Positions 11,054-58,416 of a DNA stretch of 64,000 nucleotides are shown here, piece after piece. Position 1 is the first letter of the stretch; each line of letters opens with the position of its first letter. The notes under the pieces were generated by a model. The model had not been told where the DNA came from and did not search any database. It was given only the letters and a program-made list of their open reading frames with translations. Position numbers and translations under genes: made by a program. The stretch is from an uncultured Muribaculaceae bacterium (GTDB lineage: Bacteria > Cyanobacteriota > Vampirovibrionia > Gastranaerophilales > Gastranaerophilaceae), in the NCBI GenBank assembly GCA_964461115.1, contig CAYWSX010000006.1, positions 60,892 through 124,891 on the forward strand, written 5' to 3'.

Positions 11054-11081
11054 AAAGCCCTTTTTTGATGAGGGCTTTTTA
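11054..11081 (+). terminator. Rho-independent terminator
   Basis: AAAGCCCT (11054-11061) / AGGGCTTT (11071-11078), then a T-run. Confidence 0.65.
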
Positions 11082-11110
11082 TTGACCAAAATAGCAAAAC
11101 TTGATAATAT
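11082..11110 (+). promoter_or_regulatory. Promoter of pilin-like paralog 1 (part of a conserved 5' cassette, 11082-11174)
   Basis: TTGACC (11082-11087), 17 nt, TAATAT (11105-11110). The stretch from the -35 box to the G-run is nearly identical to 17120-17211. Confidence 0.6.
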
Positions 11111-11169
11111 ATAAAAATAAGAAATTTATTATTATGGAGAAGTGTGGAAAATGGCTAAAATATTGACTT

Positions 11170-12093
11170 TTGCAGGGGGGGGGGCGACTCCTAAAAGATA
11201 AAAGTGACAAAAAATTCACTTTTTTCGGAAGTTATCTAAGTCGTATATTTTTTCCTAATTTAATCCCTCGTAAAAAAGCGTTTTCTATTGCTGAGGCAAT
11301 GATTACAATGCTCATAGTGAGTGTTGCTTTGGCAGCCATGGCGCCAGTAATGACAAAAAAGGCTCAAAATAATATGGGCGGTAATTCGAAATGGCTTTAT
11401 ACAAAAAATGGTTCTGATATCACCCGCACAGGAGGGAATGTAGGTATCGGCGTGCCTGCTAATACAAATCCTTCCGCAAAACTTCACATCAAAGACGGTA
11501 AACTATTAATTGAAAATAATTCAGCTATTTCAATTGAAATTGTTTACGATAATGACACAGCACCTGTTTTGCTGAGAAATACCAAGTACAATACGAAATT
11601 AGTAATTGGTCCGAATAATTGGGGTAATACGCTTGTTTCATATGAAAATGACAAGGTTACATCTTTTATGAATAAAAATGGAGATGTCATTGAAAGAACA
11701 GCGAGCGGGGATATAAATAAGACGATTCCTCCTGCTATGCTGGCGTTTTTTGACAGCAATTGTCCTCCCGGATGGACAAATATGGCAGATTGGGGCTGGG
11801 GTGGAAGATTTTTGAGAATAGCCGGCTGGGATAATGCTCTTGGCGTAAATACTCCTCACGGTCAGTGGCAAGATCAAGCAGTAGGCTGGCATGAACATGA
11901 TTTGAATCCTGATATACGCTCGGTAAATGTCCGCTATGGCGGTGGTGGGGGAGAGTGGAGTGTAATTCTCTCAGGAGATGTTCAATATTATGATTGGTGG
12001 GCAAGGTCAACCAGAAAAATCAAAGCTAACGGTGCAGGTGGGGCGGATAATCGTCCTCGGAATATAGCTTTAAATCTGTGCCGAAAAAATTAA
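11170..12093 (+). CDS. Type IV prepilin-like N-terminus plus tail-fibre/tail-collar-like body, paralog 1. Phase-variable; the conserved ATG at 11151 is out of frame as assembled
   Basis: ...RKKA|FSIAEAMITMLIVSVALAAMAP (F+1, E+5, hydrophobic helix). GNVGIGVPANTNPSAKLHI. PPAMLAFFDSNCPPGWT...WGGRFLR. C-terminal RPRNIALNLCRKN. ORF opens at TTG 11170 only. Confidence 0.75.
   Translation: MQGGGRLLKDKSDKKFTFFGSYLSRIFFPNLIPRKKAFSIAEAMITMLIVSVALAAMAPVMTKKAQNNMGGNSKWLYTKNGSDITRTGGNVGIGVPANTNPSAKLHIKDGKLLIENNSAISIEIVYDNDTAPVLLRNTKYNTKLVIGPNNWGNTLVSYENDKVTSFMNKNGDVIERTASGDINKTIPPAMLAFFDSNCPPGWTNMADWGWGGRFLRIAGWDNALGVNTPHGQWQDQAVGWHEHDLNPDIRSVNVRYGGGGGEWSVILSGDVQYYDWWARSTRKIKANGAGGADNRPRNIALNLCRKN
11175..11184 (+). 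repeat. G10 homopolymeric tract (putative slipped-strand phase-variation switch)
   Basis: Counted directly: gca + 10 G + cgactc. ATG 11151 + 24 nt + G10 runs into TAA at 11199-11201. G9 or G12 would restore the frame. Confidence 0.9.
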
Positions 12094-17091: not shown

Positions 17092-17119
17092 AAAAAGGGC
17101 TTTTATTAGCCCTTTTTTA
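17092..17119 (+). terminator. Rho-independent terminator of rpoD
   Basis: AAAGGGCT / AGCCCTTT stem (17094-17115), then a T-run. Confidence 0.7.
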
Positions 17120-17148
17120 TTGACCAAAATTGCAAATCTTGATAATAT
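17120..17148 (+). promoter_or_regulatory. Promoter of pilin-like paralog 2 (conserved 5' cassette, 17120-17211)
   Basis: TTGACC (17120-17125), 17 nt, TAATAT (17143-17148). Near-identical to 11082-11174. Confidence 0.6.
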
Positions 17149-17188
17149 ATAAAAATAAGAAATTTATTATTATGGAGAAGTGTGAAAA

Positions 17189-18280
17189 ATGGCTCAAATA
17201 TTGAACTTTGCGGGGGGGGGGCAAGCTCTAAAAGATAGAAGTGATAAAAAATTCACTTTTTTCGGAAAAATATTAAAGTGCTGTTTTGTTTTATATTCTT
17301 CCTCTTCTAAAAAAGGGTTTTCAATAGCGGAAGCGATGGTCACTTTGTTAATTGTTAGTGTTGCTTTGGCTGCAATGGCACCGATAATGACAAAAAAAGC
17401 ACAAAATAGTATAGGCGGGAATTCAAAATGGATGTTTACCAAAAATGGTAATGATATTTCAAGAATAACCGGAAATGTTGGTATAAATGTGCCTGCTAAT
17501 AATAATCCTGACGCAAAACTTGAAATACGCGGAGAAAATGGAATCGTCCTTACAGTAAAAGCTTCGTCAACTTCAAACAAAGATATAATTGTTGTTCAAA
17601 AGGGCGGGAGAGAGTTGGCAAAATTTGATAAAGATGGCGTTTTGTATCTCAGTCAGGCTATGAATGTAACCAATTCGACTCAAAATACTTCGTGGAATCC
17701 TGTTACAACCTGGGACGGAAATACATGGAAAAATTCACTTCAGCGGGATGGGGGATTGTCAATTAATACGAGTGCTAATCGCCGTGTTTTTAGCGCTTTT
17801 TTGAACGGCACGGAAAGAGTGTGGATAAATTCAGACGGCTCGTCTTCGTTGGCAGGTGTCCCAACCGGTATGGTGGCATTTTTTAATTTGCAAACTTGTC
17901 CTTCGGGGTGGTCGCCTATTAACTGGCAATGGAACGGAAGGTTTCCAAGATTTTCAGGCAATTACGGTATATGTAATTGGTCAGAAAGTGACGGAAATTG
18001 TGACGGAAATGGTCAGAAAGAATGGGTAACATGGAATTGGGTAGGCAGAATGGACGGAGACGCTTCTCGCCCGATATGGGGTGAGTACGGCACTGTTAGA
18101 GGCTGGGGTGCTGATGCCCAAGGTGCTTTTTACAATGCTTGGTGGACGGGGCAAAACGGACGGTCAGATAAATCGGGTGAGGCACAACACAGAATCGGTT
18201 TTAACTCAAATCGTGCGGTTCCTACGGCAAATGAAAATAAGCCAAAATCAGTCGCATTGTTAGGCTGCCAAAGAAATTAG
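17189..18280 (+). CDS. Type IV prepilin-like N-terminus plus tail-fibre/tail-collar-like body, paralog 2. G-tract in frame (ON)
   Basis: MAQILNFAGGGQALKDRSDKKFTFFG...SSKKG|FSIAEAMVTLLIVSVALAAMAP. GNVGINVPANNNPDAKLEI. PTGMVAFFNLQTCPSGWS...WNGRFPRFSG. C-terminal KPKSVALLGCQRN. Confidence 0.85.
   Translation: MAQILNFAGGGQALKDRSDKKFTFFGKILKCCFVLYSSSSKKGFSIAEAMVTLLIVSVALAAMAPIMTKKAQNSIGGNSKWMFTKNGNDISRITGNVGINVPANNNPDAKLEIRGENGIVLTVKASSTSNKDIIVVQKGGRELAKFDKDGVLYLSQAMNVTNSTQNTSWNPVTTWDGNTWKNSLQRDGGLSINTSANRRVFSAFLNGTERVWINSDGSSSLAGVPTGMVAFFNLQTCPSGWSPINWQWNGRFPRFSGNYGICNWSESDGNCDGNGQKEWVTWNWVGRMDGDASRPIWGEYGTVRGWGADAQGAFYNAWWTGQNGRSDKSGEAQHRIGFNSNRAVPTANENKPKSVALLGCQRN
17212..17221 (+). repeat. 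G10 homopolymeric tract, in frame with ATG 17189
   Basis: Counted directly: ttt gc + 10 G + caagct, read as GCG GGG GGG GGG = AGGG. Confidence 0.9.
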
Positions 18281-18358
18281 GTTTTCTTTTATTGAATTGA
18301 CTTATTTAAAATATATTGCTAGGATAGGAAAAATAACTGTTTTTTGGAGAAATATACA

Positions 18359-18877
18359 ATGCAAGATAAGGCAAAATTTTTCAGCGAAATCAAAGGTTTT
18401 TCTATTGCTGAAGCAATGATTACAATGTTAATCGTAAGTATAGCAATGGCTGCGATGGCGCCGATTATGTCGAAGAAAATCCAATCAGACGGCAAATCTT
18501 CGGCAGTTATCCCATCCGGAATGGTTTCTTTTTTCAACTTATCGACATGTCCTAACGGTTGGTCGGCAGTAAACGGATCTTGGAATAACAGGTTCATAAG
18601 AATAGCAAATGGTGCCCGTGCGGTAGGCAGCACACAAGAAGATGCAATGCTTGATGCCAGTGGTGCGATATGGGGGATTACTTCAAAAAATTGGGCTGAT
18701 GCAAATGGAGTTTTTAGGGTAACTGCCAGCCCTGGCTCTGAAGCAAGGGGACAGGGGACAACTTGGCAAGAGCGTACTTTTGAGTTTAGATTAAGTTTTG
18801 ATCCTGCACTCGCAGGTCGAATATCTAATGAAGTCAGACCAAAAAATGTGGCATTGCTTGCCTGTCAAAAAAATTAA
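18359..18877 (+). CDS. Short type IV prepilin-like plus tail-collar-like protein, paralog 3 (short leader, no G-tract)
   Basis: MQDKAKFFSEIKG|FSIAEAMITMLIVSIAMAAMAP. PSGMVSFFNLSTCPNGWS...WNNRFIR. C-terminal RPKNVALLACQKN. GGAG lies 9 nt before ATG 18359 (the ORF track starts at TTG 18344). Confidence 0.8.
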   Translation: MQDKAKFFSEIKGFSIAEAMITMLIVSIAMAAMAPIMSKKIQSDGKSSAVIPSGMVSFFNLSTCPNGWSAVNGSWNNRFIRIANGARAVGSTQEDAMLDASGAIWGITSKNWADANGVFRVTASPGSEARGQGTTWQERTFEFRLSFDPALAGRISNEVRPKNVALLACQKN

Positions 18878-56782: not shown

Positions 56783-57628
56783 ATGTCTGACAATACTAAA
56801 AAATTTGCTTTTTCTGTGGCTGAAGCGATGATTACAATTTTAATTGTAAGCGTTGCACTTGCTGCAATGGCTCCTATTATGACAAAAAAGAGCCAGAATA
56901 CAGCTTCAGGCAACTCAAAATGGATGTTTACCAGAAACGGTAACGATATTACGCGTGTTACAGGAAACGTCGGTATCGGAAATTCTGTAAGCACTAATCC
57001 TTCTGCCAGACTGGAGATTAGAAATGATACCAGTGACGGTGCTGTAAGAATATACAGGGGAAATACAATGGTAGTCCAAGTTGGCGCAAGCGGAGATATA
57101 TATGTAAATGATAACCGCACTTCAGGCAATGATTCAATTGCCACGGCTCAAAACGGTACTTGGCGCAACGCATTAAGAAGAGATGGCGGGCTTTATGTCA
57201 ACGCCGCAACCAGAACCCAGCGTGCACTCAGTATTAATTCACCGAATGGCGAAACAGCTTGGGTTAATGCAGATGGAAGTTCTTCATTCGGAGTTCCGTC
57301 AGGTATGGTTGCTTTTTTTGCCAGAGCGGCAGGCTGCCCTACGGGGTGGACAAATTTGACCGAGTGGGGCTGGGGCGGATTGTATTTCAGGGTAGCTGAT
57401 GGAGCCAATCCATATAATGTTTATCAAGATTCACAAAATAAATGGCATTCTCACCAATTCCGTAACCAGATGACATGGGATAATATGAATTACAGAAACC
57501 AGACAATAGGGCGCGGTGATAACGGAGATTTGCTGGGACCTTACTATAACGAAGCTGCAATCTTACCCGAAGGCGGCAACGAGGCTCGTCCACGAACCGT
57601 TCCTTTGTACGGGTGTGTTAGAAACTAA
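56783..57628 (+). CDS. Type IV prepilin-like N-terminus plus tail-fibre/tail-collar-like body, paralog 4 (short leader, no G-tract)
   Basis: MSDNTKKFA|FSVAEAMITILIVSVALAAMAP. GNVGIGNSVSTNPSARLEI. PSGMVAFFARAAGCPTGWT...WGG. C-terminal RPRTVPLYGCVRN. Confidence 0.8.
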   Translation: MSDNTKKFAFSVAEAMITILIVSVALAAMAPIMTKKSQNTASGNSKWMFTRNGNDITRVTGNVGIGNSVSTNPSARLEIRNDTSDGAVRIYRGNTMVVQVGASGDIYVNDNRTSGNDSIATAQNGTWRNALRRDGGLYVNAATRTQRALSINSPNGETAWVNADGSSSFGVPSGMVAFFARAAGCPTGWTNLTEWGWGGLYFRVADGANPYNVYQDSQNKWHSHQFRNQMTWDNMNYRNQTIGRGDNGDLLGPYYNEAAILPEGGNEARPRTVPLYGCVRN

Positions 57629-57638
57629 AACTAATATC

Positions 57639-57667
57639 TTGCACCTTATTCATAAATTTGTTAATAT
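57639..57667 (+). promoter_or_regulatory. Promoter of pilin-like paralog 5
   Basis: TTGCAC (57639-57644), 17 nt, TAATAT (57662-57667), followed by the conserved ATGGAGAAGT(A/G)TGGAAAATGGCT leader. Confidence 0.5.
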
Positions 57668-57726
57668 ATGAAAATAGAAAATTTTATTTCATGGAGAAGT
57701 ATGGAAAATGGCTAGATTATTGACTT

Positions 57727-58416
57727 ATGCAGGGGGGGGGGCGAATCCTAAGGGATAAGAGTGATGAAAAATTCACTTTTTCCGGAAATTTGAATGGAGG
57801 CAGCTTCAATTTTAATTTCTTTTGCTCTAAAAAAGCTTTTTCTATCGCTGAAGCGATGATTACTTTGCTGATTGTAAGTATGGCGCTTGCTGCAATGGCT
57901 CCGATGGTTTCTAAACAAGTTAAAGGTGTCAATAATTCGATTGATAAAGATGCGTTAAAAAACGAAATAATAAAAGAGCTTCAGAAAGATTTGGTTCCCA
58001 AAGGGTCTGTTATGTTTGTTTCTAAAATTGAGGAATATAAGGGCAATAACGCTTGTCCTCAGGGCTGGCGTAATGCAGGTTCCGCATGGGATGGACGATA
58101 TCCGCGCATGACGACCGATTTCAATGCAATAGGGGTATTGGCTGATGAGTCTTTGCCAAATATTACAGGCTGGCTGCATGATTGGACAAATAATTTTATG
58201 GTAACACATGCCAACGGCGCTTATGTAGTAGGGGCTTCTGATCAAAATGAGCGGACTGCGGATGTTCAAGGTTCGCAAGACCCTTATGCCAACAATCATG
58301 GGCAGATTAGCGGAATTTTGCAGTTTGATGCTTCAAAATCGAATCCTATTTATGGGCGTTCAGGTAATGAGGTTCTTCCCAAAACAGTCCATTTAGCTGC
58401 ATGTGTGAAAAACTAG
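57727..58416 (+). CDS. Type IV prepilin-like plus tail-collar-like protein, paralog 5. Phase-variable; the conserved ATG at 57708 is out of frame as assembled
   Basis: ...CSKKA|FSIAEAMITLLIVSMALAAMAP. NACPQGWRNAGSAWDGRYPR. C-terminal LPKTVHLAACVKN. ORF opens at ATG 57727, 2 nt before the G-run. Confidence 0.75.
   Translation: MQGGGRILRDKSDEKFTFSGNLNGGSFNFNFFCSKKAFSIAEAMITLLIVSMALAAMAPMVSKQVKGVNNSIDKDALKNEIIKELQKDLVPKGSVMFVSKIEEYKGNNACPQGWRNAGSAWDGRYPRMTTDFNAIGVLADESLPNITGWLHDWTNNFMVTHANGAYVVGASDQNERTADVQGSQDPYANNHGQISGILQFDASKSNPIYGRSGNEVLPKTVHLAACVKN
57732..57741 (+). repeat. G10 homopolymeric tract (putative phase-variation switch)
   Basis: Counted directly. ATG 57708 + 24 nt + G10 runs into TAA at 57756-57758. 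G9 or G12 restores the frame. Confidence 0.9.

Follow-up and report, generated by a model that had tools for sequence, protein, structure and literature searches.

A poly-G run in the leader-coding region of a prepilin-like gene of the Gastranaerophilaceae: a candidate slipped-strand ON/OFF switch

Organisation of the locus

We analysed a 64-kb stretch of DNA (the window) that holds five paralogous genes, P1 to P5, whose products share the motif [KR]-K-[AG]/F-S-[IV]-A-E-A-M (the slash marks the predicted cleavage site) with a hydrophobic stretch after it. In P3 and P4 the leader is short and lacks a G run. P1 (ATG 11151), P2 (ATG 17189) and P5 (ATG 57708) have leaders of ~43 residues, with a G run at codons 9–12. 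The features of P5, together with the corresponding runs of P1 and P2, are listed below.

57639 to 57667, forward strand: putative sigma-70 promoter, with -35 TTGCAC (57639–44), a 17-nt spacer, a TGn extended -10 and -10 TAATAT (57662–67)
57691 to 57723, forward strand: mini-frame of 10 codons, MEKYGKWLDY and stop (TGA 57721–57723), overlapping the Shine-Dalgarno sequence and the main ATG
57693 to 57696, forward strand: Shine-Dalgarno sequence GGAG, 11 nt upstream of ATG 57708, dG -6.4 kcal/mol
57708 to 57758, forward strand: canonical ATG with its 16-codon dead-end frame at G10, MARLLTYAGGGANPKG and stop (TAA 57756–57758)
57727 to 57729, forward strand: alternative ATG, 2 nt upstream of the G run, which shares the frame of the gene body at G10
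57727 to 58416, forward strand: P5 ORF as assembled, 229 residues, prepilin-like, with a tail-fibre-like C-terminal domain
57732 to 57741, forward strand: G10 homopolymer, putative mutable tract, leader Gly codons 9–11/12 of the 57708 frame
57790 to 57792, forward strand: in-frame TTG after the run, preceded by GGAA as a weak SD-like sequence (dG -3.5); it would give a 16-residue leader
57835 to 57909, forward strand: prepilin-type motif KKA/FSIAEAM and hydrophobic N-terminal helix, predicted to be cleaved between 57837 and 57838, with Glu at position +5
57991 to 58413, forward strand: C-terminal domain probably related to phage short tail fibre and tail collar proteins, with a conserved Cys pair (CPxGW...C-x-K-x)
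11175 to 11184, forward strand: G10 of P1, main ATG 11151 out of frame, TTG 11170 in frame
17212 to 17221, forward strand: G10 of P2 (GC+G10), main ATG 17189 in frame (ON), 363 residues with the full 43-residue leader

The arrangement GGAG-N11-ATG is common to P5, P1, P2 and the run-less paralog P3. P5 reads ATG 57708, 24 nt and then the G10 run, and the frame of this ATG ends at the TAA. The alternative ATG 57727 arises where the main frame reads TAT-GCA (Tyr-Ala). The mini-frame (ATGGAGAAG..., from 57691) shares the frame of 57727, and a single codon (CTT) separates its TGA from that ATG. The positions given in a preliminary description of this DNA for the G run, ATG 57708 and its TAA, ATG 57727, and the mini-frame and its TGA are all exact, and the TTG that it placed at the equivalent position of P1 is present at 11170.

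Upstream of P1 and P2, alignment places the sequence TTGACC-N17-TAATAT at the position that matches the P5 promoter. A promoter scan picked up the P1 copy, with its TG extension, and did not flag the P5 promoter because the -35 element of the latter matches at only three of six positions. We accept the P5 promoter as a putative one only through its homology with the P1 match.

The 5′ cassette (promoter, UTR and the initial 79 nt of leader sequence) is the part best conserved between paralogs, with 81–96% identity compared to 51–58% for the gene body, which suggests gene conversion or an added constraint on this region. Codon positions in the conserved leader segment were analysed as well, with too few substitutions to be informative. 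An RNA element was considered as the source of the conservation and ruled out: the 5′ region matched no Rfam family (the best, RsaOG, scored at noise level with 20 bits against a cutoff of 50), its predicted RNA fold is not significant (z = -0.44), and it contains no local repeats.

Reading frames and the length of the run

The run length was varied in silico from G7 to G13, and a change of one nucleotide flips P5 between a full-length ORF and early termination. At G9 and G12, ATG 57708 opens an ORF of 235 and 236 residues, respectively, that continues through to 58416. At G7, G10 and G13 the ORF opens at ATG 57727 instead and is 228–230 residues long, and at G8 and G11 neither start is in frame. 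Thus, three formally different outcomes result, with 57708 in frame at G9, 57727 at G10 and neither at G8 or G11. The assembled sequence has G10, so that the SD-driven ATG is out of frame and its translation stops after 16 codons; this confirms the preliminary view that the conserved ATG is OFF, and likewise supported is the reading of the G run as a tract that sets the frame from within the 5′ coding region.

The paralogs occupy different states. P1 and P5 (both GCA+G10) have one G too many. P2 (GC+G10) is in frame, and its protein of 363 residues is recorded in an NCBI-derived collection as P0001. A fourth copy of the class to which P1, P2 and P5 belong (class A) lies on another contig of the same organism (L055, protein P0022); it shows the layout of ATG, 24 nt and G10, and is also out of frame.

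The leader and its translation

P1 and P2 contain no in-frame ATG, GTG or TTG from the run to the cleavage site. Translation therefore begins upstream of the run, and the run is coding. A pilin start downstream of the run, which would leave the run in a uORF, is thus ruled out for these two genes, and is possible only for P5, by way of TTG 57790, a codon unique to this paralog.

Beyond the conserved segment, the leader has a variable part of 17 codons with 56–62% nucleotide identity, which has the same length and is open in all paralogs; its other two frames contain several stops. An in-frame reading is also found in homologous leaders whose runs are short or interrupted (GGAGGGGCGGCA, GGAGGGGCA), and in long leaders from other assemblies that carry one or two glycines (…NILGA…, …ILGGA…). 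Interrupted runs such as GTAGGAGGGGCGGCA and CTAGGAGGGGCA, also in frame in homologous leaders, represent locked-ON versions. Given the start position in P1 and P2, the open variable part and the in-frame homologues, the G run is therefore to be read as an expanded stretch of Gly codons within a translated leader, and we conclude from these comparisons that the leader is real and translated. A protein search with a leader profile returned only short or truncated proteins, among which were leaders without a G run and no new class-A alleles.

The protein family

The C-terminal parts belong to a rare family, with about 20 proteins in 5.8 billion. Relatives come almost only from Gastranaerophilales/Gastranaerophilaceae MAGs, which places the window in that group of gut Melainabacteria. 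The prepilin-type motif KKA/FSIAEAMITLLIVSMALAAMAP can be read directly in the sequence, and Phe38, Ser39, Ala41, Glu42 and Ala43 are invariant across 21 family members. Profile scores stay below the cutoffs: against Pfam N_methyl, P5 scores 14.8 bits and the best paralog 19.4 (cutoff 21.2), TIGR02532 gives 13.2 (cutoff 16.3), and NCBIfam matches to ComGC/pseudopilin N-termini are weak and below threshold. An AF2 model predicts a helix at residues 40–56, in a model that is poor as a whole (pLDDT 57). The leader, 43 residues from 57708 at G9 and 37 from 57727, is longer than that of a typical prepilin (<30 residues).

The C-terminal domain of P5 alone has no match in Pfam. The family profile, when compared with the PDB, matches a short tail fibre (9cuy, E=8e-9) and also T4 gp12 (1ocy), and the Pfam families Collar and Gp10_C are matched by the family members P0003 and P0019 (P0019 with Gp10_C at 27.2 bits, cutoff 27). 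The window has no adjacent pilus genes, and the 10 large window ORFs that were scanned are unrelated. We regard P5 as a predicted prepilin-like protein with a tail-fibre-like C-terminal domain, although its HMM scores stay below threshold and its leader exceeds the usual length.

G runs in the window and among relatives

The window is 37% G+C and contains ten G5 runs, no run of G6 to G9, and three runs of G10. Matches to G8 number 9, compared to 0.21 expected from shuffled sequences; runs as long as that of P5 are far beyond chance. All three G10 runs lie ~105 nt upstream of the KK[AG]/FSIAEAM motif, in leaders of the prepilin-like family.

Among 44 related loci of the Gastranaerophilaceae we found 16 runs of G9 to G13, all on the gene strand, and no C runs. 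A census of ON and OFF states comprised 19 loci: 13 of these 16 runs, the three window runs, L055, the locus L056 of another species, and one further run. The census counts nine ON and ten OFF loci, whose downstream ORFs are intact. Where a start could be assigned (ten census loci), the run lies 8–13 codons after the ATG, mostly with a preceding SD and in a pilin-like leader. Two loci carry tandem genes in opposite states, with G10 ON beside G9 OFF in L016 and G10 ON beside G11 OFF in L008. At the level of sequence, such side-by-side ON and OFF copies are the signature of homopolymer contingency loci. Anatomical features that mark an SSR contingency locus are found here: a homopolymer in the 5′ coding region, a frame switch upon a change of ±1, over-representation of the tract, and ON and OFF lengths at intact homologues. 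L056 adjoins secretin/RcpC genes.

At the P5 locus itself, the G10 run is identical in two independent Logan assemblies (SRR10912416 and SRR10912417), as is that of P1; G10 at P5 is thus no one-off assembly error. The P2 region is unassembled in Logan because contigs built with k=31 break at the repeated cassette. No run-length polymorphism was seen at the P5 locus in the window sequence and the two Logan assemblies, which apparently derive from one study and all have G10. When metagenomes were scanned with the conserved leader DNA (AGTGAYRAAAAATTCACTTTTT), the seven matches were all unrelated chance ones, and none had a G run.

This uniformity would be in line with an absence of switching, either because P5 (and P1) is a decaying, frameshifted pseudogene, or because G10 is a short-read consensus error in a homopolymer whose real length is G9. 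Homopolymers are error-prone, and the run-length data at P5 all come from the assemblies of one study. The downstream frame of 224 codons is nevertheless fully intact, and three assemblies agree on G10. P2 is in frame with a G10 of its own, so that a systematic +1 error does not apply. The same architecture recurs with both ON and OFF lengths in several independent MAGs, and long G runs are confined to this prepilin-like gene family. We consider the absence of switching very unlikely.

Long homopolymers are known slippage sites, and the G10 state could also be rescued with no change in the DNA, by slippage of RNA polymerase or by ribosomal frameshifting on GGG GGG GGG G, in which case the tract would set a constitutive low expression level and would not be a heritable switch. 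The run lies early in the ORF, where even a shifted minority of transcripts would yield the full-length product. Nothing in the sequence points to such a rescue in particular, a stimulatory structure being absent as judged from the insignificant fold of the 5′ region, and bacterial transcriptional slippage is, to our knowledge, documented mainly for A/T runs. Such a rescue would also leave the ON and OFF lengths among the relatives unexplained, and we view it as highly improbable.

The second start codon

ATG 57727 is the start of a recorded protein (P0021, in the NCBI and Logan collections). A clear SD precedes most genes of the window, and the calculated duplex energies separate the candidate starts: the main ATGs reach a dG of -6.4 kcal/mol, as against -1.5 at the alternative starts and +0.2 at the mini-frame ATG 57691, which abuts the GGAG that serves 57708. 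Class A also includes P0003 and P0007, two further paralogs of the same genome; our comparison of starts covered the class-A genes with DNA, P1, P2, P5 and L055. In all four, an NTG begins 4–5 nt before the run (TTG in P1 and P2, ATG in P5, GTG in L055), with a TGA 6 nt upstream of it. No NTG is found at that place in L056, which is ON, and in none of seven OFF loci of other Gastranaerophilaceae does the body frame offer a start ahead of the run; in these seven, an xTA codon and the first G form a TAG that abuts the run. Among homologous switches, the second start is thus not conserved, being present in four of four paralogs here and absent from L056 and the seven OFF loci.

The pre-run NTG arises from T[T/A/G]T-G, that is, from Phe, Tyr or Cys followed by Ala or Val, where three of the four possible middle bases give a start codon. 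Offset-frame codon junctions in the window genes yield an NTG in 8.0% and an ATG in 2.6% of cases; with some two codons free in the stretch from the TGA to the run, chance would provide an ATG in ~5% and any start in ~15%. As the paralogs share one ancestry, the pre-run NTG is effectively a single event, and, given its origin from these codon pairs, its presence is statistically unremarkable.

The class-A OFF genes with known DNA (P1, P5 and L055) are all in the +1 (G10) state and none is in the -1 state. P0003, judged from its N-terminus MSGGGQ, is probably a fourth OFF gene in the +1 state; counting it, the split between +1 and -1 is 4:0 (p about 0.06). A functional second start would predict just this bias, and it is among the observations that bring to mind a three-state switch of the licA type, a documented precedent (PMC2212159). 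In such a switch, G9 would give strong expression from 57708, G10 a weaker ON state from 57727 (or from TTG or GTG in the paralogs), and G8 and G11 would be OFF. The alternative start might be fed by ribosomes that end at the mini-frame TGA 57721, and the outcome would be either graded expression or a leader that lacks its first 8 residues. The frames at G9 and G10 work as this reading states; the NTG and its upstream TGA occur in all four class-A genes with DNA, the NTG having been kept through two changes of the middle base; and P0021 is recorded from 57727.

In mechanistic terms, bacteria could initiate here without an SD, or by termination-reinitiation with the stop codon 3 nt away, but neither 57727 nor 57691 has an SD in a genome that uses them, and ribosomes loaded at 57708 would be expected to interfere with a start only 19 nt downstream. 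The absence of an alternative start from the seven OFF loci and from L056, and a chance expectation of 5–15%, also speak against a three-state design. Moreover, as the leader is presumably cleaved, the mature protein would be identical from either start; the choice of start would therefore affect the amount and not the product. We judge the three-state switch, the main rival reading, to be unlikely.

The preliminary description proposed that the run may toggle between two N-termini, and thereby act as something other than a simple ON/OFF switch. The frames permit this (G9 with 57708, G10 with 57727) and the three length classes differ formally, but 57727 has no SD and OFF loci elsewhere do without an alternative start. 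Its suggestion that the mini-frame feeds re-initiation is not supported: the mini-frame has no SD of its own (dG +0.2), and, while present in P1 and P2, it is missing from the alternative frame of L055. Read in the mini-frame, the substitutions between paralogs are radical (K>D, G>E, C>Y); in the main frame, these changes are conservative ones (K>R, I>L, K>Q). Thus, the mini-frame is probably incidental, and ATG 57727 is probably a by-product of the main frame rather than a second designed start.

Proposed mechanism and implications

We favour, and regard as rather probable, the reading that slipped-strand mispairing in the leader-coding region makes P5 an ON/OFF switch, for which G9 is ON and the assembled G10 is OFF or very leaky. 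The G10 run would encode Gly-Gly-Gly in the leader and act as a contingency tract for slipped-strand mispairing. At G9 (or G12), ribosomes recruited by GGAG-N11-ATG 57708 would read the whole prepilin, whereas at G10 they would stop after 16 codons at TAA 57756, which would turn the canonical start OFF; at G8 or G11 nothing would be in frame. Prepilin peptidase would presumably remove the leader at KKA/F. As 57727 lacks a ribosome-binding site and lies 19 nt after the strong start at 57708, it would supply the same mature protein in small, leaky amounts at best.

A broader and rather speculative extension, to which we give little weight, is that a promoter-plus-leader cassette with poly-G serves throughout the lineage in the stochastic, combinatorial expression of pilin/tail-fibre adhesins, and that here a second NTG, 5 nt before the run and just after a TGA, adds a third heritable state (high, low and off). 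On this view, the unusually long and conserved leader might also serve some purpose beyond targeting.

Gastranaerophilales are uncultured, non-photosynthetic relatives of cyanobacteria from human and animal guts, and their surface biology is almost unknown. A poly-G-switched family of pilin-like proteins with tail-fibre-like heads would provide candidate variable adhesins, or decoys for phages or the immune system, and its ON/OFF pattern could be read straight from metagenomic reads. Gene callers pick any in-frame NTG (P0021 as 'MQGGG...', P0022 and P0003 as 'MSGGG...') or truncate the protein (P0014), and such annotation conceals the real leader and the switch. If true, the dual start would extend the licA type of graded switch to a homopolymer, on evidence that is thin. 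Full-text literature searches turned up nothing on repeat-mediated phase variation, or on this pilin-like family, in Melainabacteria/Gastranaerophilales.

Comparison with known systems

The proteins resemble type IV prepilins and pseudopilins (PF07963, TIGR02532) in a basic leader that ends in K-K-[AG] and is followed by F-S-[IV]-A-E, with Glu at +5, in a hydrophobic helix of about 20 residues, and in a C-terminal Cys pair. They differ in the length of the leader (37–43 residues compared with the usual 5–30), in position -1, which is often Ala, in family HMM scores below the curated cutoffs, and in a tail-fibre-like C-terminal domain in place of the pilin β-sheet domain.

In Campylobacter jejuni, tracts of G8 to G11 are reportedly confined to surface-structure genes of an AT-rich genome, and are said to vary mostly between G9 and G10, with many loci per genome that are ON or OFF independently. 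Compared by anatomy alone, the general poly-G contingency design is the same; the genes there concern capsule, LOS and flagellar glycosylation, whereas those described here encode prepilin-like proteins.

In licA (lic1) of H. influenzae, start codons in two of three frames (alpha/beta and gamma) lie upstream of a CAAT repeat, and both give expression, so that two classes of repeat number are in frame and one is OFF (PMC2212159). The preliminary description proposed exactly this logic for P5, which likewise has starts in two frames upstream of its tract. The repeat is a tetranucleotide in licA and a homopolymer in P5, and while both licA starts are linked to a phenotype, the putative second start of P5 has no SD and is limited to the paralogs of one genome.

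The closest analogue is the poly-G tract of Neisseria pilC, which reportedly lies in the signal-peptide region. According to PMC5953494 (citing Jonsson et al. 1991), pilC1 and pilC2 undergo phase variation through genic poly-G tracts of G9–20. The likeness to P5 is that a pilus-associated gene carries a G tract within its 5′ coding part, and that the length of this tract sets the frame and hence the ON or OFF state. Switching has been shown experimentally in Neisseria, whereas we infer it for P5. PilC is a large tip adhesin exported by the Sec pathway, in contrast to the prepilin-like P5, and in the P5 family, which belongs to a gut lineage related to the Cyanobacteria, each genome has several paralogs with a conserved 5′ cassette in common.

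Architecture and genomic setting of the paralogs

All five paralogs in the window consist of a prepilin-like N-terminus joined to a C-terminal domain resembling phage short-tail-fibre/collar proteins, and all contain a conserved pair of cysteines (CPxGW ... C-x-K-x end).

Pilin-like paralogs (window positions)
11170-12093, paralog
17189-18280, paralog
18344-18877, paralog
56783-57628, paralog
57727-58416, paralog

The paralogs are dispersed, singly or in pairs, among the housekeeping genes dnaG, rpoD, UDG, folE2, tmk and serS, and do not belong to a pilus operon. At L056, a related locus from another species, genes for a secretin (T2SS-T3SS_pil_N/Secretin) and RcpC/SAF adjoin a poly-G pilin-like gene in divergent orientation (L056:1-1603), a neighbourhood that points tentatively to export of the pilin-like family by Tad/type IV-like machinery.

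A shared 5' cassette

The paralogs with a G10 run share a 5' cassette comprising the putative promoter, 5' UTR, Shine-Dalgarno (SD) sequence and the initial 79 nt of leader sequence, within which the G run lies.

Copies of the 5' cassette
Window 11076-11230, cassette copy
Window 17114-17268, cassette copy
Window 57633-57787, cassette copy
L055:1-110, cassette copy of the fourth G10 paralog, on another contig of the same organism
L056:2940-3060, cassette copy in another species

Identity between paralogs is 81-96% in the cassette, compared to 68-76% in the prepilin helix and 51-58% in the gene bodies, and the cassette is still discernible in L056. This pattern suggests that the cassette undergoes gene conversion or is under an additional constraint.

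The repetition of the cassette also affects the Logan assemblies. Contigs of the Logan assembly SRR10912417 (k=31) stop exactly within the cassette (end of L059, starts of L057 and L047) and, as a result, the segment with the G run of P2 is absent from those assemblies. The stored protein records are likewise inconsistent, with P0021 starting at MQGGG, P0022 and P0003 at MSGGG, and P0014 truncated at MLIVS, because contigs break in the cassette and gene callers choose varying starts.

Additional start codons in P5

Two further potential starts accompany the conserved ATG (57708) of P5.

Additional start codons (window positions)
57790-57792, in-frame TTG 3' of the G run, in P5 only, with a weak GGAA upstream (dG -3.5)
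57701-57715, third-frame ATG (57701) of P5, located 4 nt 3' of GGAG, with 4 codons followed by TAG

Initiation at TTG 57790 is predicted to yield a conventional 16-aa prepilin leader that is independent of the G run, making this codon a possible source of leaky P5 expression whatever the tract state. ATG 57701, whose position is occupied by GTG in P1 and P2, is a possible competitor of 57708 for its SD.

Related loci outside the window

Homologous leaders from other assemblies, at L060:466-520 and L061:354-410, have a G tract that is either interrupted or short (GTAGGAGGGGCGGCA; CTAGGAGGGGCA). Both leaders are in frame and seem to be alleles locked ON, with mutability lost.

At eight loci of other Gastranaerophilaceae (L005, L006, L017, L036, L039, L041, L042 and L043), a pilin gene with its own start (MNLKP.RAFS) follows 400-700 nt downstream of a poly-G small ORF reading MKKNKTAKTRNLL-Gn-FGSS.KSPECQKISV..., and the intervening spacer contains palindromes (ATGCCGAACTCGTTTCGGCAT) and repeats that encode APQGL. 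At L041, L043 and L006, the small ORF and the pilin gene form an in-frame fusion.

The OFF frames were compared at these eight loci and at L008:1282/2141, L016:1417/2392, L037 and L038. The G run is always preceded by the codon GTA or CTA, whose TA combines with the first G to give TAG in one of the OFF frames. The second OFF frame is closed by a stop codon that lies 19-61 nt 5' of the run (in most of these loci, 19 or 28 nt), and the interval from this stop to the run contains no start codon. Thus, both OFF frames are sealed in these relatives, in contrast to the window's genome.
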